Of a stretch of 64,000 nt of DNA, positions 2,506-57,684 are shown one piece after another; the stretch's first letter is position 1; each line of letters begins with the position of its first letter. The notes under the pieces were generated by a model. The model was not told the origin of the DNA. It made no database searches and was given only the letters and a program-made list of their open reading frames with translations. A program made the translations under genes and the position numbers. Source of the DNA: Flaccisagitta enflata (Eukaryota); contig OZ231126.1 of NCBI GenBank assembly GCA_965153355.1, forward strand, positions 6,076,001-6,140,000, written 5' to 3'.

Positions 2506-2563
<58 letters not shown>

Positions 2564-3534: not shown

Positions 3535-3567
3535 NNNNNNNNNNNNNNNNNNNNNNNNNNNNNNNNN
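3535..3567. other. Assembly gap (33 N)
   Basis: Run of N. Confidence 1.
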
Positions 3568-7923: not shown

Positions 7924-7988
7924 TAGTAAATATGATGGTCAGCCCTGAGAATTTTGATGTGACTGAATTCTTGGAAAAAATGAATGAT

Positions 7989-31043: not shown

Positions 31044-34855
<3,812 letters not shown>

Positions 34856-36069: not shown

Positions 36070-37998
36070 CACAATAGAGAGACAGAGAGAGAGAAAGAAG
36101 CTCTCTGATTGAAAAGATAGGATTTTTCATGTTTTCCTCTCTTCTAGGCGAAGCCTCGTCGTAAAAGTTAGGTCCGATTCATGTAACACGTTTTGCTTCA
36201 ATTCTATGATACATCAGACTCGAATATTGTTCCTATCGATTGAAATGCGAGTGCGCGAAAAATCTGCTCATTGTAAAAACCTTAATTTAAATTTATCCTC
36301 TATAGGAAATCGAGCTATTGACCTGAACTTTGTTCTAGTCAGTTTGTTTTTTGCCCATACAACATAATCAAGTTGTGTTTTAGGACTTTTGCAAAAAAAG
36401 TTTCAAAATTCAGTAAACGGATATGGACTAACTATATTTATAACTATTTATTGATTTTTTTAATGAAATTTGTGATTTTATAGTTTTATATTATTTTACT
36501 TATAAAAGAAACCCTAGTTTTATAAAGGCGTTGCTATGTTTTATTGACGAAGACAAGAATGAATTACTGGAAATAATAGATTCCTTTAAAAATAGTAAAT
36601 TATTTCCCCTGGCTATAAGTTTACGATCCCCCCTGCCTCCATCTCACCTATGGTTGTGTTTAGAGGCGGGCGAGATGTCCGTGGACGATGTCATCGGCGG
36701 GTCAAGGTTGTCGGTATGACGACGCAAACAGACGCCGGCGGCGGTTGACGGGGTGGGGGTGGGGCCAAAAGTGACGCCACCGCAAACCACGCCAAAGAGC
36801 CGCGCCAAATGATGATGGTTCCGCGTCACGACACCAGGACACCACGCCAATACGCCACACCAAAGATAACCGCGCCAAATGAAGATTTTTCTGCGTCACA
36901 ACACCAGGACACCACGCCAATAAGCCACAACGAATATAACCGAAGGAGAAACAAAAGGGACAGCAATTAAGACAGGAAATGATAAATATGAACAATATAT
37001 ATGCAGCCAAGTCAATCAACTGCGCTCAAGTCGCTATACCAAAGTACTCAGCTACAAGCTCTCCAACCTTCATGATCCACCGTGAAATCCTCCACGAACC
37101 TGGGTGAGCTGGAGAGCAGGGGAAATAGTAAATTATTTCCCCTGGCTATAAGTTTACGATCCCCCCTGCCTCCATCTCACCTATGGTTGTGTTTAGAGGC
37201 GGGCCAGATGTCCGTGACGCTGATCAGCGGGTCAACGTCGGTCTTCCGTCTTGACAGCCGCAGGATCAAACCACCCAACACTCACCCAATACTGATCCAG
37301 AGTGATTTCCCTCTCCCCTAGAAGTCAAAAGCAACGCAATAACCCAGTCACCAACAAGCGCCACCCCAATGTAACACATCCCTATGTGTGTAACCTAGTA
37401 AATCAGAGCCCGTTTAACAATATCCCAACAATGCAACATATCCTGATGTCTACAGCCCAATAAACCAGAGCCCCATTTCCTTATGTCACTCCAACGTGAC
37501 ACATCCTGATGTGTGAAGCCCTACAGACCAACCAAAGCCCATTAAGCTTGTCTTCCAATATCATTTCAAAGCCCGTACCCCAAAGCCATCTCAAAGCCTG
37601 TACCCCAATGTCCTATGTTCTTCTCGACATTGTAGCACATTGTCCCACAACGTCCCACATTGTTCCATATTGTCCTGCATTGTTCTACATTGTCCTACAT
37701 CGTTCTATATTGTTCTATATTGTTCTATATTGCTCTACATTGTTTTACATTGTCTTTTACTATCACTTAAACACCACACATCTTGAAGCGTAGCCATACA
37801 GGCCCGGTGGCCCAGCAACAGACAACAGCATGACCATACAAGAGCAAAGGGTGGGCAGCGCGACAGCACAAAGCAGGCAAAACATCACTTCATACACACT
37901 AGCACAGCAAAACGGGCACTGCTGGCTTAACTTGCAGCAGCGCAGGCCAAACATTGCATCTATCCTCACAGCCAAGCAACTAAAGCCCATAGGCACAT

Positions 37999-38913
37999 TG
38001 TTAGAAATGTATGTCTGTCCGTTTCTTAGGTATGTGTGCTTTTGTCTCTTTTGCGTGCTTTTGGCTTTTCCTCTTTCTCGATTATTCAATGCCCGTGTCT
38101 TTTGTTTCTCGCCATTTTTTATATTGAACGCTAGATGGGTAACCATATGGTTGCGCCTTGTATTTTGTGCCATTTGTTTTTATTACGTAGGCGAACATAC
38201 GTAACTCGTCTTTCGTATCGTCCAATTTTTGGATTGATTGATTTTATTTATTTACGGCATTGCTTCCTAAAGTGATTGATTGATTTTTCGTGATCGTTTG
38301 AATGCGCCCTTGGAATTCACTAATTTCAATAATCTCTCATCTTTTTATTGCAGATAAACTTATGAACGGACAATTAACGTTAATTTGACTTCGACAGACT
38401 GTGGGTTGAAACCAACGAAAGTGGGCCTAAAAGTAAGTTTTATAGACGCGTCTTTGCTTTTATTAACGTTGTTTTTTATCTTGTTTTCCGGTCTGTTATT
38501 TTGTCTTTTGCTCTTTTGCATTTTTATCGCCGGATTTTAGTATGGTTTTATCGCTTGCCCGATCAGCTTGCTATAGGGATGATATGGATGAATTTAATGG
38601 GATGGGCCGGGGCAGGGGCAGGTATTATCAGGTGGCATGGGCTCTGAAGAAGATGAACATGTTGTCATGTGCTGTTTCTGTCCTTTATTGTGTCCTATCT
38701 CGATTTCATGTTATCTTTTGCGTTTGCTGATCACAATTAACGCCCACTTTCCCTTTCATTTTTCCCCCTCTCTTCAGTTGTTGAAATTTTTATGGAATAA
38801 ACGAGACGATCGCCTTCCTATTTTCCAATCGGCCAACTTTCTTTCACCACAAGTCGTCAGTCAGATAGACGCTCATAGACAGTGCCAGTTGAAACTCGTG
38901 GGCGTAATTTATA
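37999..38913 (+). repeat. 5' LTR
   Basis: TGTTAGAAATG...GTAATTTATA; nearly identical to 50319-51230. Confidence 0.95.
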
Positions 38914-38977
38914 TTTCAACAATTTAAAAAACGACTCGACTCTTTCCGTCTTCGACCTCCGAAAACGAAATTGGACA

Positions 38978-41900
38978 ATGGCAGCCGCGCGCAACGACGA
39001 CACCGTCTCGACCGCTTCAACGTCATCTCGTGTATCTCACTTCGGTTTGAATCAGTGTCCGAGGTCGAATCGTTTGCGCGCAATGAGGAACGACATCACT
39101 GCGGAAATGGAAGGATGCCGGCGCCTTTTCGACGCCGTTTCTACTTGCACCGAAGGAACGAATGATTTCGACGACGCCGCCTGTGAATCAGATGGCGCTC
39201 GACACGGCCTTCGGGATATGGTTTACGACTTTATATCGTATGCAAGGCAAATGGCGCTCGACTCGATGCCCGGCGACCCTCTTCGATTCGCGGCGTCTAC
39301 TTTGCGTCGAATCCGGCGCGAATGGGACTCCATGCGTTTCTTTGATCGTGAGAACTATCCAGAGGGTTTTCCTTCCAACGCCGACATCGTGAACGCAGTG
39401 CACAATGACATTGGGAATCGCAAAAGACCCGTCAATGAATTCTCATGGAACAGTCTCCCAACTGACACTCACGCCGCCCGTGACAATGTTACCGGCGCTC
39501 CGACTCCAAGGATGCGAACGTCTTCGCCAAACCCCGACGGATCCGAGTATCTACCACTTCCGGTCCCGCGACATGGTGCGCAATCTCCAACTGGCGGCCA
39601 ATTTTTAAATCTGCCGCCGATCCAAAGAGGAGATGCCGTCAATCAATGGGTATCAGATTTGGTCTCGGAAATTGAACCTGCGCGTGCGTCTCCGATGGAG
39701 CAAGCTGACGACATGCTTGCGGATCTCGACGACGCCGACGCTCTTGCAAGAGGCCGCGGGATCATCAACGGATTGACGCCGCAGGAGAGGGCGAGGCGAC
39801 GCTTCGTCAACAGGAGTGCTGAGAGAGACAGATGGGGTAGGCAGTTGGAGGAGGAAATGCGACAAGGCCGTCGGCTGATTGACGATATGCAGCAGCAACA
39901 ACGGGAGGAGGAGCAGCGACAGCAACAGGAGCAACAGCAGCAGCATCAATTGCAGATGCAGCAGCAGCAACTCCAACAGCAACGTCAACTCCACCGACCA
40001 CAGGAGCAGCAGCAAACGACGGCTCAACGGCAGCAGCAAGAGCTGTTGCAGCAGCAGCAGTTGCAGCAACTCCAACAATTTTGTCAACAAGATCAACAAC
40101 AACATCAGATCCTGCAGCCGGCGCCACAACCTGTGGCTCAACAACAGCAACAATACGATCAACAGCAGCAACAGCAGCAACAGCAACAACAACAAGAGCT
40201 GCGACAACATCAAACGGCAATGCAGCCGCATGAACAACAACAACAGCGGCAAAACGATGCAGGAGAAAATACGCAACAGCAACTGCAGCAGCAACAGCAA
40301 CCTTCCGCCGCGATCCCAGCGGTGGTAGTGGATCCTCCAGCTTCAAATAACCATCCTGTCGAAAGCATGAACGTCAGTGAGGAGACAGAAGAAGAGAGAC
40401 AGCAACGCCTTGCAGATCAACGTCTGCGCATGATGGCTGAAGGTGAAGGTGGTGGTGCAGCAACAGCTCCAAAGGCGCCGATCGCGGTGCCATTGGGATT
40501 CCAACAGCGAAGCTCATCACAAGAAGACAAAGAGTTATACGACAGAATGTGTAACTTTCGCCAGCAGCAGCAACGAGATGAAGATAGAAGAGCAGGAGTA
40601 TTCAACAATGCGGCAGAAATGCAACGAAAGCACTGGAATAGCCTGAACGACGGCGGCATTGGTGGAGCTTTAGAGCAGCGGGATGTGAAGCTTAGACAAC
40701 TGTCTGAGCTGGACCAGCAGCAGCCGCAGCATCCGCCAAAAGACCGTCGATCTATCTTCAGAAATTTCAATCCGGGATTGTTCAATTCGAACATACAGCA
40801 ACGTCATGTGCAGTCAGTGGAAACGTCCGTCAAGCAGCCGATGCAGCAGCAGCAACAGTTGGAGCAGCAGCAGCAGCAAGGACAGCGTCAGCGTCAACTG
40901 CAGCAGCAGAATGAACAGCAACAGCGTCCTGACCAGCAACAGCAGCTTCAACATCAACAGTGGCAGCAGCAACGGCTTCAACAACAGCAACAGCATCAGG
41001 ATCAGCATCATCAAACCCCAGCAGCAACGATTCTCCCTACCGCACCGGAAGTGATCTTCGAGAAGCAGATTGGTTCTGCTAGAAGGGAGACTGGTCTTCC
41101 CCATCAAGAGGAAAAGGTCTTCAACACAGCCGGAAGCGGAGGTGATGCGACGGAGGCGATGCGCAGGAGGCAGAAGCAGGAGGCCGCTGACGCGAAGTTG
41201 GCACAGCAGCTGCAAGATAAAGAAAGAAGAAAAGTCGCTCCCAAGAAGACAATGAGTGGATTGCAGCCAAAGGCGCCGAAAGTAGCGCAAGCGCCTCTAG
41301 CAACGCCTCAAGCGGAAGTCATCCAGCAGAATCAACGTTTGCAGCAAGAAGTGGATAGTTTGAAGATGCAGATTCAGCAGAGAGACTTCGACCTTGCCGC
41401 AGCAAGAGCAGAAGAGAAACAACGAAAAGAGGAACAACAACAGCGACAGTACGTCCGCCAAGATTTTGATGCTCCCCGATTCCATCAAGATGATCGTCAA
41501 CAACAAGTGAATCAGCAAGAGGAAGTTGGGTGGAGTGTAAAAACCACCAAAAAGAGATCTCCGGTAAAAGTCGGGGGTCAATACGCCTTTATCCAACAAC
41601 CCCCAGCGTATCATCAAGTGGAGCATCATCAAGTAGCCCGTCAACCGGAAGTCCATGTTCAGATGCCCAACAATCCGGCTCTGGACAGGTTTTTGGAAAG
41701 AGCGACGTACAATGATCTCATGCGAGCAAGGGAGGTCGGCCTCAAAGCGTTGGAGAGAGCAAGACCTGAGAAGCCTCTGCAGGAGCTTTCATCCACCGAC
41801 TTCATGATGTGGAAGAGGAAGTTCAAAGATGCTGAGAAGCATGAGGGCTTGACGCAAATGGACATCTTATTGGAATTGCCTAAGTGGTTTGCTGGTCCGG

Positions 41901-42802
41901 CAAAAGAGATCATTGAAACTGCGACGATTGATGCAACTGAAGCGACAGCAAGAGGAGAAATTGACGACGCCTTCGCAAAAATGGACGTCGTCTTCATGGC
42001 AAGGCGCTGCAACATTGCGGCGCTGTTCAACGAAATCGTCGCGGAGGCGAAGATCCAGTCGGCCGACCATGCAAGGCATTTCAATTTGTCTGCAAGGTTG
42101 CAAAAGGCAAAGAAGATTGCGAGGACCTGTGGAGAAGTGCAACAATGCTATCGTGACGAGCTGCTGCAGGAGATCCTCAACAAGAGGGTCCCTCATCTTG
42201 CAGATAAATTCTGGGAAAAGCAACATGAAGCAGCCCAAAATGGACAATTATTTTCATTCGACAACTTGGTCAATATGATCGAGACATGGGCGGTGATTCA
42301 GCGCAACAAAGGCGCAAGCTGCAAAACAGCATCAGTGGCAGCAGTCGCAACTACAGAGAAAGAAGCGCCATCATCATATGAAGATGCTTTGACCAATGGC
42401 AAGCAAAAGACGCAGTCGACGGACCGCTGCAACGTCTGCAGTGGAATGCATCAAACAGAAGAATGTCATCAGCTGTTAGAGTTGGAAGTGGACGCGAGAG
42501 TTCAAAAGATCATGTCTCGTCGTCTTTGCTTCCACTGTCTCGCGCCAGGACACAACGCCAAAGGATGCGCGAACAGACCGACTTGCCAAACCTGCAAGAA
42601 GCGGCACGCAACGATTCTCCACGGGCGCACCTACAAGAAAGAAGAAAAGGAAGAGAAGAAAGGAGAAAATAAGCAGGGAAATAAAGTACCGCTGGCTCCC
42701 TTCAAAAAGTCAGAGGATGCGGCTGCAGCAGCACCAACAGCTCCGTCGACGGCGGAGGCAGCCAATCCTACGGAGGTGATCTCTTCTAACGTCACGGCAT
42801 GA
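38978..42802 (+). CDS. gag: Gag, very long and polyQ-rich, with a BEL/Pao triple zinc knuckle
   Basis: Uninterrupted frame; CNVCSGMHQTEEC, CFHCLAPGHNAKGC, CQTCKKRHATILH. Confidence 0.92.
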   Translation: MAAARNDDTVSTASTSSRVSHFGLNQCPRSNRLRAMRNDITAEMEGCRRLFDAVSTCTEGTNDFDDAACESDGARHGLRDMVYDFISYARQMALDSMPGDPLRFAASTLRRIRREWDSMRFFDRENYPEGFPSNADIVNAVHNDIGNRKRPVNEFSWNSLPTDTHAARDNVTGAPTPRMRTSSPNPDGSEYLPLPVPRHGAQSPTGGQFLNLPPIQRGDAVNQWVSDLVSEIEPARASPMEQADDMLADLDDADALARGRGIINGLTPQERARRRFVNRSAERDRWGRQLEEEMRQGRRLIDDMQQQQREEEQRQQQEQQQQHQLQMQQQQLQQQRQLHRPQEQQQTTAQRQQQELLQQQQLQQLQQFCQQDQQQHQILQPAPQPVAQQQQQYDQQQQQQQQQQQQELRQHQTAMQPHEQQQQRQNDAGENTQQQLQQQQQPSAAIPAVVVDPPASNNHPVESMNVSEETEEERQQRLADQRLRMMAEGEGGGAATAPKAPIAVPLGFQQRSSSQEDKELYDRMCNFRQQQQRDEDRRAGVFNNAAEMQRKHWNSLNDGGIGGALEQRDVKLRQLSELDQQQPQHPPKDRRSIFRNFNPGLFNSNIQQRHVQSVETSVKQPMQQQQQLEQQQQQGQRQRQLQQQNEQQQRPDQQQQLQHQQWQQQRLQQQQQHQDQHHQTPAATILPTAPEVIFEKQIGSARRETGLPHQEEKVFNTAGSGGDATEAMRRRQKQEAADAKLAQQLQDKERRKVAPKKTMSGLQPKAPKVAQAPLATPQAEVIQQNQRLQQEVDSLKMQIQQRDFDLAAARAEEKQRKEEQQQRQYVRQDFDAPRFHQDDRQQQVNQQEEVGWSVKTTKKRSPVKVGGQYAFIQQPPAYHQVEHHQVARQPEVHVQMPNNPALDRFLERATYNDLMRAREVGLKALERARPEKPLQELSSTDFMMWKRKFKDAEKHEGLTQMDILLELPKWFAGPAKEIIETATIDATEATARGEIDDAFAKMDVVFMARRCNIAALFNEIVAEAKIQSADHARHFNLSARLQKAKKIARTCGEVQQCYRDELLQEILNKRVPHLADKFWEKQHEAAQNGQLFSFDNLVNMIETWAVIQRNKGASCKTASVAAVATTEKEAPSSYEDALTNGKQKTQSTDRCNVCSGMHQTEECHQLLELEVDARVQKIMSRRLCFHCLAPGHNAKGCANRPTCQTCKKRHATILHGRTYKKEEKEEKKGENKQGNKVPLAPFKKSEDAAAAAPTAPSTAEAANPTEVISSNVTA

Positions 42803-45800
42803 CTGGCGGCGACGGCAACGTCGCGGTCCGTCTCTTCATTCGACGACGTTGTCCGTCCGATTGTTCCAGTGACTATCATAAACAATTCTTCGGGTGCGCA
42901 GAGGACGATTTACGCTATGATCGACTCAGGCGCTGATCGCGACGTGATCAGTACCAATGTCATTCGCAGTCTTCTGATTCCAACAAAAACAGTGCAAATG
43001 ACGGTGATTACTGTGGGAAGTCATGTTGTTGAGGATCGTTTCATCGCATCATTCACTATGCAATCGGTCGACGAAGAATACGTCGTCGACGTCAACGACG
43101 CATTGGTGGGTGATTTGTTAACGAGTGAACGCGACATTCCTCCTTTTCTCCGCGACCTATCTGACCAACCTCACATCGAAGGCATAAAATTTCCAGAAGC
43201 TGAAGGCGGTGTGATGATGATCATCGGAGCGGCGCATGCGGATGCCGCCGTCGCTCAAGAAACCGAGGGCCTTCAGGATCTTTGACTTGCTTCAGATGTC
43301 TATTCGGTTGGACTGTATGTGGAAAACGGGCAAGAGAGGACGAGATATTGCGTCGATCAACGCTATCGCGACGGATGACCCGTCCTCAACGATAACATCG
43401 ATCGCATCCTCGACAATCGCGTCCTCAACAGCAACATTGACCGCATCTTCTACCATGACTTTGCATCATCAATCGTCTCGCAAGAGGAGATGGGTGATTC
43501 CTTGAAAATGTCAGAGCGTGCAAAACGCGTTAGAGGAAAAGACATATTTTTGCCCAATTGTGAAAAAGTACTTTGCTCCCGTCACATGGAAATTTCATCA
43601 CGAAAAAATCATGAGATTCTGAGAAGAGTGAAATCACGACCGATCATGGCGAAGCGACTCGGTAACCAACGTTCGTTTAAGCGTGATCCAGCCTTCAAAG
43701 AAAGAGTCTTCCGTGAAATCGAGAAGTTTTACGAGACGGGAGTGGCGATTGAGATTGACAACGCCGGATTTACTTAAGACGGCATTGAGAAGCGCAGCTG
43801 GTACTCTGCCGCTTCATATTGTTGAATTGCGCGGAAAAACGCGCGTATGTCACGATGCGCGTGCGGCGACCGACGGGATCTCACTCAATGATTTGCTCGT
43901 CGGAGGTCCAAACTTAATGAACAGCTTGATGGACATCCTCATGCGTTCGTCAGTGGAAGATCGCTTTATGTGTGATATAAAGGCGTTCTTCCACCAGATC
44001 CGTCCATCCTGACGACGCTGATCTGTTCAGATTCTTTTGGTTCAAAGACCGTACTCTACGAGAAGCCATTTTGAATCTGTTCTTATCACATGTCTTCGGC
44101 AGCCAATCCAGCTCATTAATCACGTCTTTCACCGTCAGAAAGCATGCTGAAGTAATCCGGCCCAAATATCCCTACAACGTCTACGATCTTATTCGCCGCC
44201 TACTCGACGTGATGGAAGTGGGGGTGGGGATTCGGTCGACAAGCACTGCAGTTGAAGGTGGATGCAGTGGCGGCGATGGCTGAAGGCGGGATGGATCTTG
44301 TGAAGTGGAAAAGTAATGCGGCAATTGATGGATGGAGATCCGACGCAAGCAATTCTCATCTCAGATAAGCAAGATGATGCGCCGACGAAGGTGTTGCGTC
44401 TCATGGCTTCCGGCGGAAGACGTCTTCATCTTCATCTGCGACGAGGAATTCAAAACTCTTAGAGCAAAAACACCTCGTCAATTGGTCTCCATGCAAGCTA
44501 AACTTTATGATCCATTGGGATTTTGGAGCCCAAGCGCATACATCGGTAGACGACATCTTCAACTCTGTCGTCCACAGGAAGTGGGATGGGATTCGCCCTG
44601 GAAGAGAGCGCCGAGGAATCCTTCTTCCGCTACACTTCATCTTGGCCTCTTCTGCAACAATACCGAATTGAACGCTGGTGGAATGGCGGCGCGACAATAG
44701 TGACATTGCGGAAATAACAATTGAGATCTTTTGCGATGCGGCTCCAAAAGGCGGATATGGAGCAGTCGCATATCGACGTCAAGTCAATCGAGATGGAGAT
44801 GTTCACATTTCGTTCATCGCCTCCAAATCCCACGTCATTCCACTTAATCCCAAACGCGCTTCTCATCACAACAGCGTTCCACGCGTCGAGATTGTATCCG
44901 CAGAAAAAGCAGTGCAGCTCAAACGCTTCGTCGGAAGGACCATCGAATTGGACAATCTTGTCGTCAGATTTTGGTCTGATTCTGAATCTGCACTGAAGAT
45001 GATTTACAATCCGGCGAAACCGAGGCCTGTATTTTTCGCCAATCGTCTCTCCAAGATCCATAGCGGGTCTGATCCTCAACAGTGGCGCTGGGTTGATTCG
45101 TCAAACAACCCGGCGGACCACTGCAGCAGAGGCATCCAGGCCCATGAAGCCGAAAAATGGCGTCAATTCCATCACGGTCCTGCATTTTTGCGTTTCCCTA
45201 AGATCAATGGCCAAAGACGAACATCGCGACGCGCCCTATTTCTGCACAAGTCGCCGCATTGTATGTGGCTGAAAGTGAAAAGAAACAAGTGGCTGACGCG
45301 ATACTTCTGCAGCAGCGGGGAAAATGGATGCATGGAGTTGCGGATCATCGGCATGGTTCTTATCGCAGTCAAAAGGTGGAGAGCGTATCCAAGGGCGAAG
45401 ACACGAGCAGCAAGGGATCTCCTTCCTAAACCGGAAGTGACGCAAGACGTTTTGGAGGAGGCGCGCAAACAGCTCGTCAAGTCAATGCAGCGGCATCATT
45501 ATTCAGACGTCTTCGAACAATTGGAGTTGGGAAAAGTCTTTAAACCAGAAAGCCGTCATGACTTCATCATAAAAATAAAGAGATGCGGAAATTGAATCCT
45601 TTCGTCGACGACGACGGTATCATTCGCGCGGCAGTCGATTGGAAAACGCCGACATCGCACATGACGCTAAATTTCCCTTCATCCTGCCGCCAAAAGACGA
45701 GAATGTGAAATCATTGATTCGCCATTATCATCACAATGATTTTCACGCGGGTGCAAAGCATACATTGTGCCAATTACGCCAATTTGTGTGGATTACAAAA

Positions 45801-46812
45801 GGTCTTCAGGCTGTCAAGAGCGTCGTCAACACGTGCTTCAGATGCCAGAAGAACTTTAAAAGAACGCAAATCAGCAAATGGCCAATCTTCCATCAAATCG
45901 TCAATCCTGCGCCTGTCTTTGCAGAGACTGGATTGGATGTCATGGGGCATTTCCTAGTTAAGATGAACGGGCGTGCTGATCACAAGGTGTGGATCGCAGT
46001 GTTCACCTGTTTCGTGTCACGCCGCCGTCCATGTGGAATTGCTTCAACATGTCAGCCGATGCGATGGTAATGCAATCATCCGCTTGCAGCAAGGTAGCGC
46101 CCAGGAACTGCTTCACATCAGATTGCGGGACGAATCTAGTAGGCGCCAATAATATCCTCAAGAAGGAGATGGAAGCTTGGAACCGCTCGTCAACTCCCGA
46201 ACTGCAGCGGCGCGGCCTTCTGCGTGGGATTTCATCACATTGAGAACACCCAATTATGGAGGGGTGGGAGAGAATCGTCGCTCTCTTAAGCGCCATCTTG
46301 CTTCCATCCTCGACTGGCGCCATCCTCCACGTCGACGCCCTTCAACACTGCCGTTGTCGGTTGAAGGAATTCTCAATCGTCGTCCTCTAACAGCGCTCAG
46401 CGATGATCCAAATGACTCTGAGGCCCTCACACCGAATCATATCCCCAATCCATCGACATCCGGTCACGCCCCTCTGGATCTGGTGCAACAAGGCGCCAAC
46501 TCTTGACGCCGACTCCGCGAAGATTCACGGAGGCAAACGCGTGTGGATGCATTTTGGAAATCGTGGAGGGTCGAATATTTGTCGCTTCTTCACGCGCGAA
46601 GCAAATGGTCGAGATCCGAGAAAGACTTTGCGGTTGATGACATGGTCATCGTCATGGACGAAACGCTGCCTCGTCACAATTGGAGTTTAGGACGTGTCAT
46701 GGGCGTCGAGGGATCATCAGCCCATGTCCGGAGGGCTCACATCCGGCGCCAAGATGGAAAGATCGTGACGAAAGACCGCACAAAGCTCGTGCGGCTTGAA
46801 TTGGACTCATAA
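42803..46812 (+). pseudogene. pol: Pol (protease, RT, RNase H, integrase) broken by many frameshifts
   Basis: YAMIDSGA; RVCHDA...SLNDLLVGGPNL...DIKAFFHQI; IFCDAA...YGAVAY, FWSDS, NPADHCSRG; H..H..C..C zinc motif, GLDVMG, SDCGTNLVGA; FWKSWRVEYLSLL...KW tail. Confidence 0.92.
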
Positions 46813-47656
46813 AACGCTAAGTTTTGAGAGAGAGAGAAAAAGGCGCATGGGCCTGTCCATTAGTAACTATAGATATGAGTGATTGAAACTCTGACTTGTT
46901 ATATTTACAAAGAGTTGTTATTATTCATATTTGGTTCTGATTATCCATGCTTTCATCTTTCCTCTTGTCAATTATGTTGTCCATTTCCACTTACACATCA
47001 AACACTGATTCATTCGCTCTGTCTATATGTACATATTATTGTGCCAAATCCGTTCTTACCATTATCAGTTCTCAATACGAACATTTCAAAGCTTCCGCTG
47101 ACGACGTCATTCCATCTACGAGGTCAGTTCGCATCTTGAAGTCGCTCGTCGGAGTCAAGATGTCCCGCCAGCAGCGCCTCGGCAGAAGCCGACGTGTCGA
47201 CGTCGCACGGATCCTTGGACCTTCATCGACTCTTCAACGACGGCTCGACTCGAGAAGGATCTGCATCCACGACGTCGTCGGGTGGAGGAGGAGGCTGTCG
47301 CGCTGGCAGCCTTCAATGGCGACCTCGTTCCTCGTAGACGCAAAATGGCGAATAAAAAGCGTCAACAAGATGATGCGTTGGTAAATCGTCAACAGCCATC
47401 CAACGCCGTTGATCCCGCTCGCTTCCTCCATTGGTGGTCATCAAAGATGGAGGTTCGAGGCGGATCTCGATCAATCGGCCGCCGACGGACTTATCCACCA
47501 CTTCTGCGGCGGCGTCATCATCATCGGATTTGCCCCCATCGCCTCGCCACCCTGCCTTGATTTCGTCGCCCAGCGTCTCGTGATCAAGCGCCTGCAGCTG
47601 CACGTCAACGCAGCGGGGGCGAAGAGAGAGAGAGATCGGTCAATGATGGAGCAAGA

Positions 47657-49273
47657 GTGGAGGAGGAGGGGATGGAGACAGAGGAGGAGGTGTTAGTGAA
47701 TGGGGAGGCGGTGGAGAAAGACATTGACCCGGAAGTGGACACTGCGACGCCGGAAGAGAAACACCAACGGATGCAGGCGCGTTGGTGGTATCGTATCATC
47801 AGTCCGGACGTCGAAGTATCTCTCCTCTTCAAAGAGTTTGAGAAACTTTCGGTTTGCTGCAACAAACAAACTCTCATGCGCTCATCGGCTAATCAAACAG
47901 AGCTTGGCTCGGAGACTCTGGAGCGCAAAATCCAAAGTAACAAAAGAAGGAGGGAGCATGATAAGGAGGTTCGTCGCATGGTCCAGGCGACGAAGAGGAA
48001 GAATGCGGCTCCGAAGCCTCCTGATGCAACTGCAAATTCATCTGCAGCAACTTCCGTCGACGCTTCCGCAACTCCACCAGCGGTATTTGTGCTCGACGCA
48101 GCCGCAGCTACATCAGCGGCAATTCACTCTACAGCATCAGGAAGTCGTCAATCGCGCCCTGGATTGGTTCATCCCCCAAATCAGCAGCAACAGGGTCCTC
48201 GTGACATCACCCCTCACAACAGTCGAAGAGATCACGTCGGGGAAAGACTCCACAAACGCGCAACGTGCCGAGTCAACAAAGGGCCAAATTCCCAAAGCCA
48301 AAGCCCCCTTCAAGCGCCTCCAGGCGCGCCCCCTGCAGCAGTAACGCCCAAAGGCCAAGGAGAAGCCGCGGCTGCCGACGGCAACGTTGGCAGCAACCCA
48401 GAAGCTGAATCAGGCGCCTGGGCAGCGGCAGCAAAGGGGAAGAAGACCAAGAGAGCTGGGAAGAAGCATAAAGCAGCAACCAAGGGAGGTTCTACTTGCG
48501 GTGCTTCGGCGTCCGCTGTTAAACCTCAAGTCTCTGGTCAGCAGACGGGAGCGTCTTCCTTTCACTCGCAGCCATCAAAAGCAGCGGTAGGAAGCGAACT
48601 AGTTGGCGGTGCTTCAGCATCTGTTAAAGCTGGTGTAGCGCCTCGTCAGCAAACCGAGTCTGCCCAAGGTCTGCAGCAAGTGCAGAACCCGCCTCCCCCG
48701 TCGGATCCAGCCTTTGATCCTGCGCATGGACACCACATCGCCGAGTCATTGCTACGAGAAGCCTCTTTACTGACCTCAAATGCTCCATTGGGGGTGGTGA
48801 AGAATTTAGCATCAAGGCTTCCAAAAGACTTCTTCGCGTCGCTTCCTCCGCGTCAACGAGTTGAAGCGGCTCGTCAAGTCTTAGACGAGAGGATTCGTCG
48901 CAACATCCAAAAGGAGAGAGACGATGCTCGTCGAGCAGCAATGGCTGCGGACAATGAGGTGGTCAAAGGCAATAAGCAAGTCGTGGAACTGGAGAAGCAG
49001 CTTGAAAAGGAGAAGCAGGCCTGTGCGATGAAGGCTAAGAAGAAAGAGGAAGCGGTGGAACGCGCAAAGGCGGCTATGGCCGTCGACTTCAAAACTGCGT
49101 CCGCTGTGCGTCCTAAATTTCGACTGGCGCCGAATTGCGATGCAGCATCTCCACCTCCTGCGTCTTCTCCTGCAGAAAAAGTCGGTCAGCAGATCCTGTC
49201 GCAAAAAGACGCTCCCAAGCCTGGGAATAAGAAAAATCGAACCAGGCCTTGGAAAAATCAGACCGCCAGCTAA
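47657..49273 (+). CDS. Additional ORF of unknown function between pol and the 3' LTR (probably extends 5' to ~47160 through frameshifts)
   Basis: 538-codon open frame, A/K/Q/S-rich, with a charged helical C-terminal region; no obvious signal peptide or transmembrane segment. Confidence 0.7.
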   Translation: MEEEGMETEEEVLVNGEAVEKDIDPEVDTATPEEKHQRMQARWWYRIISPDVEVSLLFKEFEKLSVCCNKQTLMRSSANQTELGSETLERKIQSNKRRREHDKEVRRMVQATKRKNAAPKPPDATANSSAATSVDASATPPAVFVLDAAAATSAAIHSTASGSRQSRPGLVHPPNQQQQGPRDITPHNSRRDHVGERLHKRATCRVNKGPNSQSQSPLQAPPGAPPAAVTPKGQGEAAAADGNVGSNPEAESGAWAAAAKGKKTKRAGKKHKAATKGGSTCGASASAVKPQVSGQQTGASSFHSQPSKAAVGSELVGGASASVKAGVAPRQQTESAQGLQQVQNPPPPSDPAFDPAHGHHIAESLLREASLLTSNAPLGVVKNLASRLPKDFFASLPPRQRVEAARQVLDERIRRNIQKERDDARRAAMAADNEVVKGNKQVVELEKQLEKEKQACAMKAKKKEEAVERAKAAMAVDFKTASAVRPKFRLAPNCDAASPPPASSPAEKVGQQILSQKDAPKPGNKKNRTRPWKNQTAS

Positions 49274-50318
49274 ACGCTGATTGGTGCCACGCCCAGTTGC
49301 TGTTCAATTTAACTACAATTTGCAACATGGCGTGGAGAGCGCCATTCGCTGAGGATCTGATTCACCCATCACATCCTCATCCCATCGATGGACAGGCCGG
49401 CAAGTCGGGGGCGCTACCCGGGGCGTGGAATGACGTCCGCCCCGGGGCCTGGCGAAAAACGCCCGCGTAAGTATCATGGTTTGGGAAGGGTTGAGGTTGA
49501 GTTTTTGTGGTAAATTTGAATCTGTGTACGATAAGAACTTTACTAATCAATCTGCCCCTGTTCTTTCTCTTTCTTTTTCTTCCCTTCGGGGAGGATTCAC
49601 TCTCAGACGGCTGCACCACCTGCGCCTTTCGATGCGGTCGCCGTTGACGACATCATTCATCGCCTTTCGCCCACGAGTTGACGAGGTGTTGGAGCCGGAA
49701 TGACCCGCTCGTCTCTGTAATGGAGAAGGCGCAGGTGATGTGGTCGTTCCATGATGCTTACTAATTTTTCTTTTATTTAACAGATTCGTTTTTATTATAT
49801 AGTTAGTAATTTATTTAATTTTGTCTTGTTTTGTTTGGTTCTTTGGAACATGTACATTTTTGTTGTGTTTGTTTTAGACATGGTCTTTTAGTCATTATTA
49901 CGAATACTTCGTATGACATGTTTTTAGTAGTATGCCCCACTTATTATTTTCCACTCTCAAGTCAAATCCCAGGCTTGAGTGCTCCAAGGCCCCTCCCCCC
50001 CCCTTCCCTTTAACTTTCACAGAACGGGCGCCTCAACCTCCTCGTCGCCGCCTCGCCTCCATCCGCGTCATCGTTGATCGCTGAAAATTTGCTGGTGGTG
50101 GATCCTTTCCGGACGGAATCATCATTCGTGCAGTCGTCGATCTGTTGATAGTTAGGGTGGGGATGTAAGAGGCGGTGGACGGGGGGGGAGGGGCGGGGGC
50201 TGTATCTATGTAAATTTTTTTTTAAGGAAGGTAGTATCGGTTTTTTAGTAGGGTTTCCCCGACTGGAAACTAGATGTCGGATTTTTGAAATTCGTGAAAT
50301 TCCAAAAATGGGGCAGAA

Positions 50319-51230
50319 TGTTAGAAATGTATGTCTGTCCGTTTCTTAGGTATGTGTGCTTTTGTCTCTTTTGCGTGCTTTTGGCTTTTCCTCTTTCTCG
50401 ATTATTCAATGCCCTTGTCTTTTGTTTCTCGCCATTTTTTATATTGAACGCTAGATGGGTAACCATATGGTTGCGCCTTGTATTTTGTGCCATTTGTTTT
50501 TATTACGTAGGCGAACATACGTAACTCGTCTTTCGTATCGTCCAATTTTTGGATTGATTGATTTTATTTATTTACGGCATTGCTTCCTAAAGTGATTGTT
50601 TGATTTTTCGTGATCGTTTGAATGCGCCCTTGGAATTCACTAATTTCAATAATCTCTCATCTTTTTATTGCAGATAAACTTATGAACGGACAATTAACGT
50701 TAATTTGACTTCGACAGACTGTGGGTTGAAACCAACTAAAGTGGGCTAAAGTAAGTTTTATAGACGCGCCTTTGCTTTTATTAACGTTGTTTTTATCTTG
50801 TTTTCCGGTCTGTTATTTTGTCTTTTGCTCTTTTGCATTTTTATCGCCGGATTTTAGTATGGTTTTATCGCTTGCCCGATCAGCTTGCTATAGGGATGAT
50901 ATGGATGAATTTAATGGGATGGGCCGGGGCAGGGGCAGGTATTATCAGGTGGCATGGGCTCTGAAGAAGATGAACATGTTGTCATGTGCTGTTTCTGTCC
51001 TTTATTGTGTCCTATCTCGATTTCATGTTATCTTTTGCGTTTGCTGATCACAATTAACGCCCACTTTCCCTTTCATTTTTCCCCCTCTCTTCAGTTGTTG
51101 AAATTTTTATGGAATAAACGAGACGATCGCCTTCCTATTTTCCAATCGGCCAACTTTCTTTCACCACAAGTCGTCAGTCAGATAGACGCTCATAGACAGT
51201 GCCAGTTGAAACTCGTGGGCGTAATTTATA
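50319..51230 (+). repeat. 3' LTR
   Basis: Matches the 5' LTR with only a handful of substitutions and 1-bp indels. Confidence 0.95.
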
Positions 51231-53329
51231 CACATGCAGACCACTCCAGCATTGCAGGCACAAGAACACAGGAGCACTGGCGCTAAACACTACAGCACTG
51301 CAGACACGGCAAATCAAAGTCACCACTACAGGCACAGTGGCACAAGCGTAACAGTGCAACGATGGGAGCAATATCACAGCAAAGCAGAATCATTATTGAA
51401 TTGCTTAACAAAATACAACACTATCAACAGCAAGGCCACAATAGCTGGATAGCAAGCAGGCGCAGCAACCCAGCAAGGCATCATGATACAGCACAGCAAA
51501 GGGCAAACAGCAACATAACACAGATCAGCATTGCGGCAAACACAACATAGCAACACAGGTGTTAGAGCTTTGCCAAGCAAATGTCAGAGTTAGGCAATTC
51601 ATGTCGGAACCTAGCGATGCAAACGCTACAGTGATATCAGCAACACACATATGACAATACAGCAACACACACGCCAAAGCTGAGCAAAACAAACGACACA
51701 GCTCAGCAATGACTTGACTCAACAACATTGATATCGCAGCAACAACAGACTAACACTCAATGACACTAACGTAACCGCTCGACCAAGCAGATGGCGTGGC
51801 CAACCACGCAGCTCAACAACACACTCATCGCAGCACAACAGTATACATGTCAAGTACAATGATGCATGTGTCGCAGCACAACAATGGGCATCTTGCAGTA
51901 CAACATAGCACAAGGCAGCACAACAATTCACAACGCAGCACAAAAATATAATACCATCAATGGCAGGGCCAAAACAGCTGGATAGCAGGCTGGATAGAAG
52001 CAACCCAACAAGGCGGACAAGATTATACAGCACAGCCAAAGGCTCACAGCAACATAAACATCACGGATCATCATTGTGGCTACAGCAACACTTGTGTTAA
52101 CAGAGCAATACAAAAGACACAGCTTAGCAAAGTAACGAGTCAACAACACTAATGTCACAGCAACAACAGACTCAATGCTCAATGACTCAATGCTCAATGA
52201 CTCAATGGCTCAACCAAGCATATGGCATACTCAACCACATGTTTCAACAATGCACTATTACAGCACAATAATGCACATTTCGCAGCACAACAGTGTACAA
52301 GGCAGCACAAAAATGCACATGGCAGCACAACAAGGCATATGTAAAAGCTCAACAATGTACACATCAGAGCACAATATTGCACATGTCAAAGCAAAACAAT
52401 GCACATGTCAAAGCAACATGTCAAAGCACAACAACACACATGGCAAAGCACATCAAGGCACATGGCAAATCTGAACAATGCACAGGTCGAAGTTCAACAA
52501 ACAGATAGCACAGCTTAACCACGCAACCTAACAACACACATCCACACAACGCATGTCGCGACGCAGTGTAACTATCGCGGCACAATTATGCACATGTTGC
52601 TGCTCAATTACACAAATGTCACCGCACATTTAGGCTTACGTTGCCGCACAATTATGCACATGTTATTGCGGCAAAACCATGTGGCAGCAGGTCAACATGT
52701 CACAACACAAAAACACAAATTAAAGCACATGTCATAGTTTAACAACCCACATATCAAAGCTCAAAAATGCACATGTCAAAGCTCAGCTGGCCACATGTTA
52801 AAGCTTAACAAAACACATAATGGGGCACATCTCAGTAAAACACATGAAGCTGCTGCACAACAAACGTTTCATCACAAAATTGCAGCTCCACAATGCGCAT
52901 AAAACAGCTCAATACATGTCACAGCTTTACACAACATGCAACATGCAACTTGATAAAGCATAAGCAACATCCCAATGAACACATGCCACAGCTCGATAAA
53001 GCATGTGCCACAGCTTGCTTAAGCTCAAGCCTTATGCCAAAGCCAAACAAGCTGTCACAGCTCAACATGACATATGTCACAGCTTGCAAGCAAACACTTC
53101 TCACTGCACATCAACACAGCTTCAAAGCTCTTTATGCGGATGCTATGGGCCCAGGATTGCAGACAAAAGCAGCATCGCATACAATAGAACCTAGCAGAGC
53201 ATTAGTTTGGCCATGCAAACATCAGATAGCTCAATAAAACATACAACACAGCTTAGCAATGCAAATGTCACCACTTGACCATGTGTATGTCAATACAAAA
53301 ACAAAAAACAGAAAACAAAAAAAAAACCT

Positions 53330-55075
53330 TAGCACTCCCAGACAGACCTGCATTGAGACTCCTTCAGCTGTTTCAGATGGTCACTTGGCCATTAAGGACA
53401 GACTTCTACTAGTATCCAACCCCGGCCACTCCAGACAGAACCCAACTGAGACCCAACCCCAGCAAATTCAAAATTCCTGCTGAAACTCAAACTCCAGCAA
53501 CTTCAGACTTGACTAGCAACCCAGACAGACTTTTACTAGGACACAACCCCACCAATTCAATCAGGCTTCTATGATGACAACCAGACTTCTACCGGAATTC
53601 AAACTGGCTATTCTGGACAGACTTCTACTTGGCCTCAACCCTGGCTTCGATATGCAACCTAACTCTAGCAACCCAGACTTCTAGTGGGACACAACCCCAG
53701 TGACTAATCCAACCCCAGACAGGCTTTGACTGGAACCCAACCTCAGCTTCTCCAGACAGGCTTCAATTGGGAGTCAACCCAAGCAATTCCAGTCAGGCTT
53801 CGACTGAGACCCAACCCCAGCAATTCCAGGCAGGCTTTGACTGGAACTCAACCCCAGCAATTCCAGACAGGCTTCGACTGGAACTCAACCCCAGCAATTC
53901 CAGACAGGCTTCGACTGGAACTCAACCCCAGCAATTTGGACAGGCTTCGACTGGAACTCAACCCCAGCAATTCCAGACAGGCTTCAACTGGGACTCAACC
54001 CCAGCAATTCCAGAAGGTTTTGACTGGGACTCAACCCCAGCAATTCCAGACAGGCTTTGACTGGAACTCAACCCCAACAATTCCACAAGCTTCGACTGGG
54101 GCTCAACTCAACCAATTCCAGACAGGCTTTGACTGGGACTCCAACCCAGCAATTCCAGACAAGCTTCGACTGGGACTCCAACCCAGCAATTACCGACAAG
54201 CTTCGACTGGGACTCCAACCCAACAATTACAGATAAGCTTCGACTGGGACTCAAACCCAGCAATTACAGACAAGCTTCTACTGGAACTCCAACCCAGCAA
54301 TTACAGACAAGCTTCGACTGGGACTCAAACCCAGCAATTCCAGACAAGCTTCAACTGGGACTCCAACCCAGCAATTACAGACAAGCTTCGACTTGGACTC
54401 CAACCCAGCAATTACAGACAAGCTTTTGACTGGACTCAACCCACCACAGACAAGCTCTACTGGGACTCCAACCCAGCAATTACAGACAAGCTACTGGGAC
54501 CTAACCCAGCAATTACAGACAAGCTTCAACTGGGACTCCAACCCAGCAATTACAGACAAGCTTTGACTGGGACTCCAACCCAGTAATTACAGACAAGCTT
54601 CTACTGGAACTCCAACCCAGCAATTACAGACAAGCTTCGACTGGGACTCCAACAACCCAGCAATTACAGACAAACTTCGACTGGGACTGCAACCCAGCAA
54701 TTACAGACATGCTTCGACTGGGACTCCAACCCAGCAATTACAGACAAGCTTCGACTGGGACTCCAACCCGGCAATTACAGACAAGCTTCGACTGGGACTC
54801 CAACCCAGCAATTCCAGACAAGCTTCAACTGGGACTCAAACCCAGCAATTCCAGACAAGCTTCAACTGGGACTCAAACCCAGCAATTCCAGACAAGCTTC
54901 AACTGGGACTCAATCCCAGCAATTCCAGACAGGCTTCGACTGGGACTCAATCCCAGCAATTCCAGACAGGCTTCGACTGGGACTCAATCCCAGCAATTCC
55001 AGACAGGCTTCGACTGGGACACAAGCCCAGCTGCTTCAGACAGGCTTCAACTGGGGCTCAACCCCAGCAATTCCA
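53330..55075. repeat. 37-bp tandem minisatellite (CAGGCTTCGACTGGAACTCAACCCCAGCAATTCCAGA), degenerate at the left end
   Basis: Period 37 (unit starts at 53831, 53868, 53905). Confidence 0.95.
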
Positions 55076-55479
55076 ATATTCTTGCCATGAGTCTCCATCG
55101 CCATTTCTGTCGATATTTCCAACACTATCCCACCACTATTTCCATCACTCTTCCATTGCTATCACCGATGCCACTTGCCACTGCTAACACTGCAGTCTGC
55201 ATCTCCGATGCCGAAACAAAAAGCGCTTGATGTCTTAAATCTGATGTTGACCAATAAGTCAAGAAAAGAATGCATCAAACGGAAATTGCCCCGACAAATC
55301 CTAGCTCATATTCAATTCCCAATGCAGAGCCAAAAACCATGCCACCTGAACCCACAATGCTAAGATCTCCCTTAGCTTATCGATTCACTGCAGAATCTCT
55401 TCCCCAGACTAACTACAGCAAAGGTCAGGAAAAGAAAACATCAAATATCACCAGCTATGGATCTTCTCTTAACCAATCT

Positions 55480-56085
55480 ATTGACTTCTGAATCTCAACT
55501 ACAGCTCAACAACAGCAAATAAAATTTGATGTCTTATATCGGATGGTGACCAAAAGGCCAGGAAAAGAATGTACTATTTTACTCCTGAATCTCAACTTCA
55601 GCTCAACCACAGCTCAACCACAACAAATAAAATTTGATGATATTTATATCAGATGGCAATGAAGGCCAGGAAAAGAATGCATCAAATATCAAATGCTATG
55701 GATCTTCTTCAACCAATCAATTCACTTCTGAATCTCAACTACAGGTCAATCACAGCAAATAAAATTTGATGGCTTATATCAGATGGTGACCAAAAGGCCA
55801 GGAAAAGAATGCATCAAATAGCACATGCCATGGATCTTCTCCAACCAACCAATTAAATTCTGAATCTCCACTTCAGCTCAACCACAGCAAACAAAAATTT
55901 GATGGCTTATATCAGATGGTGACCAAAAGGCCAGGAAAAGAATGCATCAAATATCACATGCTATAGATCTTTTTCCACCAATCAATTTACTTTCGAATCT
56001 GAACTTCAGCTCAACCTAAGCAAACAAAATTTGATGGCTTATATCAGATGGTGACCAAAAGGCCAGGAAAAGAATGCATCAAATT
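55480..56085. repeat. ~132-bp tandem repeat
   Basis: ggaaaagaatgcatcaaat recurs at 55801, 55934 and 56066. Confidence 0.9.
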
Positions 56086-56151
56086 TCTTACTAGCATTGA
56101 GGATTACTCAAAGGGGAAGCTTTGCTTCATCTCCTGCATGAACAGGAACAG

Positions 56152-56607
56152 GGTCTGAGATCAATTATCTATAGTACTATGCTGACGTTCTTATGTTGAA
56201 AGCCATTGGTTTGCTTGAATAGTTTGTCCACAACATCAATTTGAAGTAAAACAATCATTTACAGTTTTAACTTAAAAATCTTGTTTGATTTTCAAAACGG
56301 ATTTCTTTTTAATTGCTTTTATTTCCAATTAACTTGAGCTATAGAGTTCAAATTGGTTTCAAATGAAAGATTATGCAAATATCTTTGATTTGAGACCAAT
56401 CAGGCAACTGTAGCTCAAGTCAGTCTGAGATAAGAGAATTTTGAGAAAATCTGCTTTGAACATTCTTACTAGATTTTCAGCTAAAACTGTAAATCATTGT
56501 TTTACTTCAAATTGATGTTGTGGTCAAACTATTCAAGCTAAACCAATGAAATTTTAACACAAAAAACGTCAAACATAGTACTATGAAAGAAAATTGATCT
56601 CAGACCA
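56152..56607. mobile_element. Palindromic MITE-like insertion
   Basis: ggtctgagatcaatt / aattgatctcagacc with complementary inner arms; shares caacatcaatttgaagtaaaa with a palindrome at ~60015-60300. Confidence 0.65.
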
Positions 56608-57460
56608 CAGACTTGATGCATATAGGAATGTAAGCTTAATACTTTTCCCACTTTGAGATTGATCACCCTGTATGAATCGCCTTCTTATCTACTAACCAAA
56701 CATATAACTGAATCTCATCTTCCGCTCAACCTCAGCAAATAAAAAACTTTTCCACAGCTTATGTCATCAATGATTTCCGCGTCTTCAGCCAAACTGCAGC
56801 CAAAACAGACTTAGCACTGACTGACCGGGCTATCTGGCAAGAGACAGCACCCAAGCCAAGGCAGACAGAACTACTATTAACGTTTGTTCCAACAAATGAC
56901 TCGAACACTGCGGAATTTAAAGCAAGCGTGAGAGAATGCAATAATGCTAAAAGGGGAGATAAGGCGGATTAAGACAATTATCTCAATTACCAAACATAAA
57001 ACAAATAACACGGGCTCAAACCTCAGAACAACATGACGTGACCAAATACCACACAGACAAAATGAATGCCTAAAGTCATGATAGGAATGAGACATAATAC
57101 ATCACCCAATGGTTTAAGCCGAGCGACAATCCAAATTTGAAACTTGCAACACGCAACGGATTTTCCTCCCGTAACAACGCCAAACAAAGGAACGATATCA
57201 AAGCGACTTGAGCAAAAACACGACAACCCATGATCCACCGTGAAATCCTCCACGAACCTGGGTGAGCTGGAGAGCAGGGGAACTAGTAAATATCTCTGTG
57301 GATATCTCTGTAATTTAGACGCTCGGATGAAAACTCGGATACAAACCTGTGGCTGATGCAGTTAGATAAAATGGTACAGCACCATATTGATGAGAAATTT
57401 GATAACATACACATGGAAAAAGAAAAGTGACATGGTACCAATTCGGAGCTGCTGATTGAG

Positions 57461-57684
57461 TCTCTGCACGATTTTGTTTTTCTTTCAGAATCCTCCGCCA
57501 GCGAATTAAATTCGAATAGCCTAGGTCGCACACATAAACCCAGCCAACCCTTAGCCCTAAAGCACACCTTGTCCCAACCCTAACCCTAAAACTATCCCCA
57601 ACCCTAACTCTAACCCTAAACCCACCCCTAACCCTAATTTAAAAAGACGCTTAAAAAGTCTTAAAAACAAAAGATCGACAGATG
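57461..57684. repeat. Dispersed repeat with degenerate (CCCTAA)n, copy of 7989-8217
   Basis: Direct alignment by eye. Confidence 0.8.

Follow-up and report, generated by a model that had tools for sequence, protein, structure and literature searches.

How does a stretch of DNA in which no coding capacity was found come to be bounded, in an animal genome, by halves of a short palindromic site that it carries complete in its interior? The question is raised by a locus of Flaccisagitta enflata in contig OZ231126.1 of assembly GCA_965153355.1. The window analysed here is the whole stretch of 64,000 nucleotides at positions 6,076,001 to 6,140,000 of the forward strand, and all coordinates below are positions within it. 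The element in question lies at 36601-57285. Its junctions suggest, and do not prove, that it entered by site-specific recombination rather than by ordinary cut-and-paste transposition. With confidence that is about evenly balanced, we regard it as a non-autonomous element moved by a tyrosine-recombinase-type mechanism, being either a derivative of a split-direct-repeat (SDR) retroelement or two units accreted in tandem; these two sub-readings carry about equal weight.

The element is built on two repeats, X and Y, arranged X1..Y1X2..Y2 on the plus strand. The copies of X (36590-36705 and 37123-37235) are 94.8% identical over 116 columns, with the outer 82 bases identical, and those of Y (37064-37133 and 57224-57291) are 95.7% identical over 70 columns. 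On the minus strand, where Y (70 bp) corresponds to A and X (116 bp) to B, the order is A1..B1A2..B2, with 358 unique bases between A2 and B2; the repeat comparison thereby bears out the order proposed in a first-pass annotation made from the sequence alone. The size of ~7.5 kb given there also holds, the host element measuring 7,448 bp once a nested BEL/Pao retrotransposon is removed. The Y1/X2 junction divides the element into a short and a long unit, whose common sequence consists of 116 + 70 bases only. From left to right, the parts of the element are as follows.

36595-36600, plus strand: spacer GTAAAT, copy 1, at the left junction (from the sequence)
36601-36705, plus strand: X1, starting with the arm TATTTCCCCTG at 36601-36611 (repeat comparison)
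36706-37063, plus strand: unique 358-bp segment of the short unit, including a 70-bp x 2 tandem repeat at 36800-36942
37064-37127, plus strand: Y1, finishing with the arm CAGGGGAAATA at 37117-37127 (repeat comparison)
37117-37144: complete site at the Y1/X2 junction, an 11-bp arm, the spacer GTAAAT and an inverted 11-bp arm
37134-37235, plus strand: X2, the second copy of repeat X (repeat comparison)
37236-37998, plus strand: long unit interior, part 1, A- and C-rich on the plus strand, with 10/20-bp repeats at 37637-37754
51236-57223, plus strand: long unit interior, part 2, non-coding and largely tandem arrays
57224-57285, plus strand: Y2, finishing with the arm CAGGGGAACTA, which matches at 10/11 (repeat comparison)
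57286-57291, plus strand: spacer GTAAAT, copy 3, at the right junction, followed by ATCTCTG

The perfect 11-6-11 palindrome that the first-pass annotation had placed at the A/B junction is present at 37117-37144, where CAGGGGAAATA-GTAAAT-TATTTCCCCTG has perfect 11-bp arms around an asymmetric 6-bp spacer. Half-sites had been claimed for both ends as well. The left end does carry the spacer and right arm, GTAAAT+TATTTCCCCTG at 36595-36611, and the right end an arm and the spacer, CAGGGGAACTA+GTAAAT at 57275-57291; the claim needs amending in that the right-hand arm is imperfect, matching at 10/11 (C at 57283). Taken as terminal inverted repeats (TIRs), the tips match at 11/11 for the short unit and 10/11 for the long unit. 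The palindrome is beyond chance. The window holds 2 perfect 11-6-11 palindromes, whereas 100 Markov shuffles gave 0.02 on average and 1 at most, and the arm with at most one mismatch is found 6 times versus 1.27 expected, a count of 6 being reached in 0/100 shuffles. The other perfect palindrome, at 31188, is part of an unrelated repeat. Further inward than the 11-bp tip, bases 30-58 of X agree at 24/30 with bases 6-35 of Y taken as reverse complement, and because of this displaced match beyond the tip, the ends of the element are, as judged by sequence comparison, an extended, interrupted inverted repeat.

Tyrosine-recombinase sites are described as arms of 11-13 bp with 6-8 bp between them (PMC3212892; this and all papers below are cited for individual passages). 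The junction presents inverted arms of that length around an asymmetric spacer of that length, and its 28 bp can be regarded as a candidate core site. In passages of the PAT, Ngaro, DIRS and Crypton literature, supplementary files excluded, no description of a palindromic 11-6-11 B/A junction was found, and among the full-text matches listed for the two 11-mers (10 of 13 papers) there are only unrelated primers and sequences. Pattern scans for the X start and Y end returned 2 viral contigs and 2 metagenome contigs, and all 4 are chance matches: L001 and L002 have nothing in common with X or Y beyond the pattern, and L003 and L004 have no blastn match to the window at E 1e-5.

The junction and the wider family were followed in public sequence. 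Twenty public runs, comprising marine metagenomes plus organism A, share part of 36300-37998, and contigs, not reads, of four of them (X3, X5, X6 and X7, which are handles of runs and not of repeat copies) were aligned to 36150-37998 at 80% likeness. The Y1/X2 junction is crossed with 0 differences by contigs from two different studies, at 37071-37216 in X3 and 37071-37193 in X6, and overlapping contigs 36654-37100, 37071-37216 and 37218-37734 tile across it. Because these bridging contigs in X3 and X6 show no difference, a misjoin at Y1/X2 is excluded. The junction contig has a depth of 75.2 in X3 and 19.6 in X6, compared with 43.7 (short unit) and 31.9 (long unit) in X3 and 12.9 and 10.3 in X6 for the unique sequence of the two units; these values fit an element in which X and Y each occur twice, and the junction once, for every copy of the unique sequence. 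The two unique parts are similar in depth in all 4 runs, the other values being 797.6 (short) versus 895.6 (long) in X5 and 425.7 versus 356.9 in X7.

Runs X5 and X7 also contain diverged versions of both units: a short-unit version spanning 36686-37084, with depths of 321.6 (X5) and 151 (X7), and a long-unit version from 37217, ~81% identical, with depths of 87.1 (X5) and 41.7 (X7). The contigs of these diverged interiors break exactly at the X and Y borders, and X and Y exceed the unique interiors in summed depth by a factor of 5-13 (X5, X7). For both reasons the ends are taken to be conserved features of a family, carried on different interiors. Against main-version depths of 800-900 (X5) and 360-425 (X7), variant contigs are shallow, at ~79-93 and 32-42, which may reflect some 10 copies or else polymorphism within pooled material. 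One X7 contig (depth 173.8) joins the Y end at 37128, via two extra letters, to 37822, its short side being just 22 letters long, and a joint of the diverged long-unit copy likewise ends at 37822; the X7 joint may be a deletion derivative or another context of the Y end.

To the left, the element abuts half of a high-copy interspersed repeat, R, its probable target. The summed word depth of this half, R_left, is 10-70 times that of the element interior (X5, X7), and the copy in the window is heavily diverged from the R majority. In all 4 runs, other R copies part from the window at 36584-36597 and then read (TAGTA)GAGCAAAAATTCAAAACC, or in longer form (TAGTA)GAGCAAAAATTCAAAACCTG; the loose ends listed at 36591/36597 comprise 21 contigs in X5, 5 in X7, 6 in X3 and 5 in X6. 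Past 36597 these copies continue with GAGCAAAAATTC, giving ...AAAAATAGTA-GAGCAAAAATTC, and consensus R runs ...TTTAAAAATAGTA and then GAGCAAAAATTC... across the same point. The 18 bases behind 36597 in the other copies occur once in the window, at 3581-3598, with 0 mismatches, and the match extends to 30/30. Directly before 3581 stands AGGGGAAATAGTA, which is the end of the Y arm plus GTA. R and this second element end are laid out as follows.

3568-3580, plus strand: second element end, AGGGGAAATA+GTA, abutting a run of N at 3535-3567 (arm scan)
3581-3780, plus strand: R_right, the right half of R, whose first 30 bases are the loose-end consensus behind 36597; its right limit is approximate
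36150-36597, plus strand: R_left, the left half of R, ending in the core AAATAGTA at 36590-36597

Both halves of R are orphaned in the window. They share one orientation, with the right half upstream of the left by 33 kb, and the break falls at one and the same nucleotide of R in both; no further copies of R_left or R_right were found in the window. R_right holds an imperfect palindrome of 137 bp at 3606-3742. To the left of the 33-N run 3535-3567, the sequence 401-3534 has no similarity to the element interior or to R.

The element junction and consensus R have the 8-base core AAATAGTA in common. The left flank and the internal junction share 11 identical bases (AAATAGTAAAT), the first 8 of which are the R consensus. 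The junctions seen are R_left-AAATAGTA-AAT-TATTTCCCCTG at 36.6 kb and CAGGGGAAATAGTA-GAGC-R_right at 3.5 kb, the latter reading (C)AGGGGAAATAGTA-GAGC-R_right when written with the preceding base. On sequence grounds, these two junctions fit the products predicted from a single crossover within AAATAGTA between the complete site CAGGGGAAATAGTAAATTATTTCCCCTG and R, with no substitution needed: the left product retains the element spacer GTAAAT, and the right product retains the GTAGAG of the target. The junctions lie at two loci, and a duplication of 6 bp or 8 bp also fits them. They may represent two independent insertions at one R nucleotide, or a single insertion that was copied along with R; in both cases they illustrate the form that an insertion into R takes. 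The 8-mers adjoining the arms, AAATAGTA at R and AACTAGTA at 57281-57288, agree at 7/8. Identity with the target reaches 5 bases into the element tip (AAATA), for which the chance of coincidence is estimated from the base composition of R at about 0.5%.

The earlier expectation of integration at a short shared sequence is supported in part: a core is shared with R, and a second end lies at the same R position, but the core is AAATAGTA and not TAGTAAAT. The predicted empty site tttaaaaatagtaaatatctctg is not supported, since R copies read ...AAAAATAGTA-GAGCAAAAATTC and the right flank is not R. Because that flank, ATCTCTG, does not continue the left one, the locus cannot be explained as a single clean insertion in an intact target. 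Possibilities are that the R copy was already truncated exactly there, that its right half was later replaced, or that the units were joined from two loci.

The interior was searched for coding capacity. A Pfam scan of the 10 longest of 36 stop-to-stop open reading frames (ORFs) of the element, on both strands, gave no match reaching the cut-off, in agreement with the annotation, which had seen no reverse transcriptase (RT) or recombinase. The best score was 18.4 bits against a cut-off of 22.9, from an ORF arising from the 37-bp array. This negative rests on stop-free ORFs; decayed remnants below ORF level were not searched. Outside 36-58 kb, 10 of the 27 ORFs of at least 130 aa were scanned and contain no recombinase, RT or transposase, the only Pfam matches being F-box, OTU and a weak Tau95_N. 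Tandem arrays occupy much of the long unit, with 22-bp units at 52245-52818, 37 bp x 37 at 53715-55075 and 132 bp x 3.7 at 55602-56084. On the plus strand the AT skew of both units is +0.15 to +0.46 throughout, non-tandem parts included, and neither flank is similar. A TATA-like CTATAAG stands on the A-rich strand 13 bases inside each X, at 36613-36620 and 37146-37153; to judge from its position, it would suit a transcript that starts within X and lacks the first bases of the element, as in DIRS-type replication models. In RNA runs the word share of the region is just 0.05-0.17.

The tyrosine-recombinase-type mechanism is placed first because of the arm-spacer-arm geometry, the AAATA identity with the target, the use of the same R nucleotide twice and the agreement of the 8-mers. 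Under this mechanism the ends of the family would be the two half-sites of a lox/dif-like site, each with an 11-bp arm, inverted around GTAAAT. A circular form would bear the complete site Y-end/GTAAAT/X-start, and a tyrosine-recombinase-type enzyme supplied in trans would exchange strands between this site and a short genomic core, which in R would be AAATAGTA. The integrated element would then be flanked by hybrid half-sites, with no true target duplication. Two routes could lead to A..BA..B: (i) the element may derive from an SDR element of PAT/Ngaro type, in which the internal junction would template the circle junction, or (ii) a second circle may have entered the hybrid site of a resident copy, as in bacterial tandem accretion. 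An exact join that leaves a perfect complete site would arise most easily if one copy's right end and another's left end recombined site-specifically. The retroelement sub-reading is favoured by the strand asymmetry, the near-equal depth of the two units and the ATT at the start of the minus strand; against it stand the lack of any RT remnant among the scanned ORFs and the 358 unique bases between A2 and B2.

Known elements resemble the locus in part. Elements of the DIRS order integrate by recombination of a short sequence at their junction with an identical stretch of the genome, and no duplication results (PMC3266345). The layout A1..B1A2..B2 is built into PAT and Ngaro elements (PMC4157794, PMC8547959, PMC13465315); the position of the internal repeat varies among PAT-like elements (PMC4157794), and Ngaro is drawn as B1A2B2 with adjacent repeats, solo AB repeats also being known (PMC8547959). 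The present element has the same order, with an internal B/A junction equal to the joined ends, and, if the two R junctions are crossover products, it would like them combine a short identity between junction and target with no evident target duplication. Its minus strand begins with ATT, the commonest terminal trinucleotide of DIRS1-like elements, of which 23/28 annotated examples start and end with NTT, mostly ATT (PMC3266345). It differs in that remnants of gag, RT/RNase H, methyltransferase and recombinase were not found in the 10 ORFs scanned, in that its repeats are short (116 and 70 bp), and in that its target core is 8 bp rather than the 3 bp of the DIRS order.

Cryptons have terminal direct repeats of 4-6 bp and boundaries that are hard to define (PMC3212892), and these repeats reflect microhomology with the target (PMC13465315). 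The GTAAAT of the present element can be read in the same way, and a circular intermediate has been proposed in both cases. Non-autonomous Crypton families occur in Rhodnius and medaka, and animal Cryptons showed no terminal repeats in 50 copies; Cryptons are reported to lack TIRs (PMC3212892). The likeness is limited by the lack of a recombinase domain in the 10 element ORFs and the 10/27 ORFs scanned outside 36-58 kb, and head-to-tail pairs are not described in the passages of the Crypton literature cited here. Among bacterial cis-mobilisable, integrative and mobilisable, and integrative and conjugative elements (CIMEs, IMEs and ICEs), gene-less members keep only attL/attR, and the whole or parts can excise; integration into the hybrid site of a resident copy gives a head-to-tail pair (PMC5704250). 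Together with lox and dif, these share with the locus an arm-spacer-arm geometry and gene-less elements, which is a functional analogy and not membership: the bacterial systems have known integrases and target tRNA or other genes, whereas here the genome is that of an animal, the target is an interspersed repeat and the enzyme is only proposed. As far as can be judged, the element would integrate like one of the DIRS order or a Crypton; since it lacks the genes that define these groups, it cannot be assigned to either.

Several observations weigh against a recombinase-borne element. No RT/RNase H, gag, methyltransferase or tyrosine recombinase is present in the 10 scanned element ORFs. Eleven perfect TIR bases, a displaced 24/30 match and a 6-bp direct repeat are also the signature of a DDE transposon, and inverted arms of 11 bp are at odds with family descriptions of Cryptons, which exclude TIRs. 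In Ngaro the repeats are adjacent, whereas here 358 bases intervene between A2 and B2. The right flank from 57292 (ATCTCTGTGG...) is not R_right, so that a further event or a pre-truncated R copy must be assumed. If one insertion was duplicated together with R, the two R junctions might provide no independent evidence of target choice. The depths of the diverged short and long interiors are 3.6-3.7-fold apart (X5, X7), and the two unit types are therefore not strictly 1:1. The contig results themselves come from 24 of 205 loose ends and 32 of 1022 pieces.

It is possible, if doubtful, that the locus consists of two non-autonomous TIR copies of the DDE cut-and-paste type lying side by side, a short one at 36601-37127 and a long one at 37134-57285, which share the 6-bp target-site duplication GTAAAT. 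The palindrome would then be TIR-duplication-TIR, and a target preference of about AAATA/GTAnnn would explain both the reuse of R and re-insertion beside a resident copy. Such a pair would account for the 11-bp perfect TIRs with their 24/30 inverted match further in, and for the same 6-mer at the left end, junction and right end, GTAAAT occurring three times at the locus. The copy at 3568 is followed by GTAGAG, the 6-mer of the consensus R target, as a duplication would be, and no insertion shows both flanks alongside its empty site. The excess depth of X and Y over the interiors, 5-13 times in X5 and X7, is typical of conserved ends on varied interiors and resembles non-coding derivatives that share only their ends. 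Non-coding interiors rich in tandem repeats, as found here, are common in non-autonomous class II elements, and TIR elements are far commoner in animals than recombinase-borne ones; the pair has a higher prior than the recombinase mechanism. Other features are harder to reconcile with two TIR copies. The GTAAAT of the left flank differs from the GTAGAG of consensus R at 2/6 positions and needs a variant R copy, which is possible given the divergence; the AAATA upstream is identical in the R target and the element tip, the coincidence estimated above at ~0.5%; and for a second insertion to hit a 6-bp duplication precisely would be very unlikely unless target specificity were unusually long, a property that to our knowledge is rare among eukaryotic DDE families. 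Target identity 5 bases into the tip, perfect tandem units that share one repeat and the double use of one R nucleotide all set the locus apart from DDE elements. The tips TA...TA match no superfamily consensus that we know of, no transposase was seen in the ORFs scanned, and the right flank would still not continue R. A hAT-like element with an 8-bp duplication of AAATAGTA was also considered and fits both R junctions, but its tips would lie 8 bases out of register and no longer form inverted repeats. A Helitron or Helentron was rejected on inspection, neither strand showing 5'-TC, CTRR-3' or insertion between A and T or T and T, features that we take from general knowledge of these elements.

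An origin of A..BA..B by means other than transposition as a unit is improbable: insertions at two loci, one in R and one at a site ending ...ATCTCTG, would have been joined by deletion or ectopic exchange, or by misassembly via short repeats. The mismatched flanks speak for such a joining, R continuing elsewhere with GAGCAAAAATTC and not with ATCTCTG, as do the mere 116 and 70 bases that the units have in common, the unequal depth of the diverged interiors, and the orphan junction of Y end and R_right 33 kb upstream, beside a run of N. A misjoin at Y1/X2 itself is excluded by the intact junction in contigs of X3 and X6, nor would deletion at random produce an intact complete site, since joining the units exactly requires site-specific exchange between their ends, the very mechanism placed first above; the contig check of continuity covers 36150-37998. 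It is very improbable indeed that the locus is not mobile DNA at all, and is instead a local duplication or satellite-rich region in which replication slippage or segmental duplication made the repeats and palindrome. Tandem arrays dominate the interior and no coding capacity was found in the ORFs scanned, as such an origin would have it; yet a second Y end lies in another context at 3568, contigs of diverged interior copies stop precisely where these meet X and Y, X and Y outnumber the interiors, the break in an intact high-copy repeat falls at one particular nucleotide, and the palindrome is far beyond chance. Targeting of RNA genes in the manner of Dada elements has no support, R not being a recognisable small-RNA gene: Rfam and tRNA scans of the window gave nothing, and the Rfam scan of the window found no hammerhead of Penelope type.

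The long unit is interrupted by a retrotransposon that is nested in the host element and not part of it.

37999-51230, plus strand: BEL/Pao long terminal repeat (LTR) retrotransposon (LTRs, duplication, Pfam)

Its LTRs, at 37999-38913 and 50319-51230, are 99% identical, and a 5-bp insertion duplication, CACAT, lies at 37994-37998 and 51231-51235. Pfam identifies the domains Peptidase_A17 and Integrase_H2C2. The retrotransposon is 13.2 kb long, and its first ORF, of 1307 aa (38879-42802), has long Q-rich stretches and no Pfam match. Because the Peptidase_A17 match is split across two frames (44329-44700 and 44672-45595), pol is broken despite the 99% identity of the LTRs. The sense strand has a skew like that of the host element, A-rich and T-poor. 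Contigs pass 37998 without a break at the LTR start, for 819 letters in X3 and X5 and 1704 letters in X6, and the insertion may be absent from the commonest haplotype of these three runs; no repeated 31-mer in the window explains the points at which these contigs break.

Other repeats lie in and around the element. A foldback at 56152-56606, nested in the long unit, has arms that are 79% complementary and a symmetric base composition unlike the remaining element; similar sequence occurs at 59970-60230, and the foldback is probably a separate insertion resembling a miniature inverted-repeat transposable element. To the left, two inverted copies of another repeat stand 3.4 kb apart at 31080-31320 and 34580-34820, with perfect hairpins at 31188-31215 (11-6-11) and 34678-34707 (11-8-11), and could form the two ends of another foldback or TIR element. 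A further interspersed repeat, 57453-57700, starts 161 bases to the right of the element, and has copies at 7981-8233 and 21800-21924 (87% and 82%).

If the locus were a pair of TIR transposons, the finding would be an ordinary one, save for the unusually long target preference. The sites of eukaryotic tyrosine-recombinase transposons (DIRS, PAT, Ngaro and Crypton) are poorly defined, and for the DIRS-1 recombinase, specificity has yet to be studied by experiment (PMC7192593). More tentatively, we propose a gene-less family whose sole functional parts would be the halves of a 28-bp lox-like site. A tyrosine recombinase acting in trans would insert its members at AAATAGTA, the 8-bp core present in an interspersed repeat, and as each integrated copy would have usable hybrid sites on both sides, the members would accrete head to tail like bacterial CIME/IME islands. 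If this is true, the split direct repeats of PAT and Ngaro elements and tandem accretion would be one phenomenon, and the sequence at which a eukaryotic recombinase-borne transposon recombines would be known to the base. If the element is what its junctions suggest, it offers a complete minimal 28-bp candidate site, a natural target core and both kinds of hybrid junction, with which recombination could readily be assayed and the partner enzyme sought, and the puzzling layout of split direct repeats could be traced to simple tandem integration.

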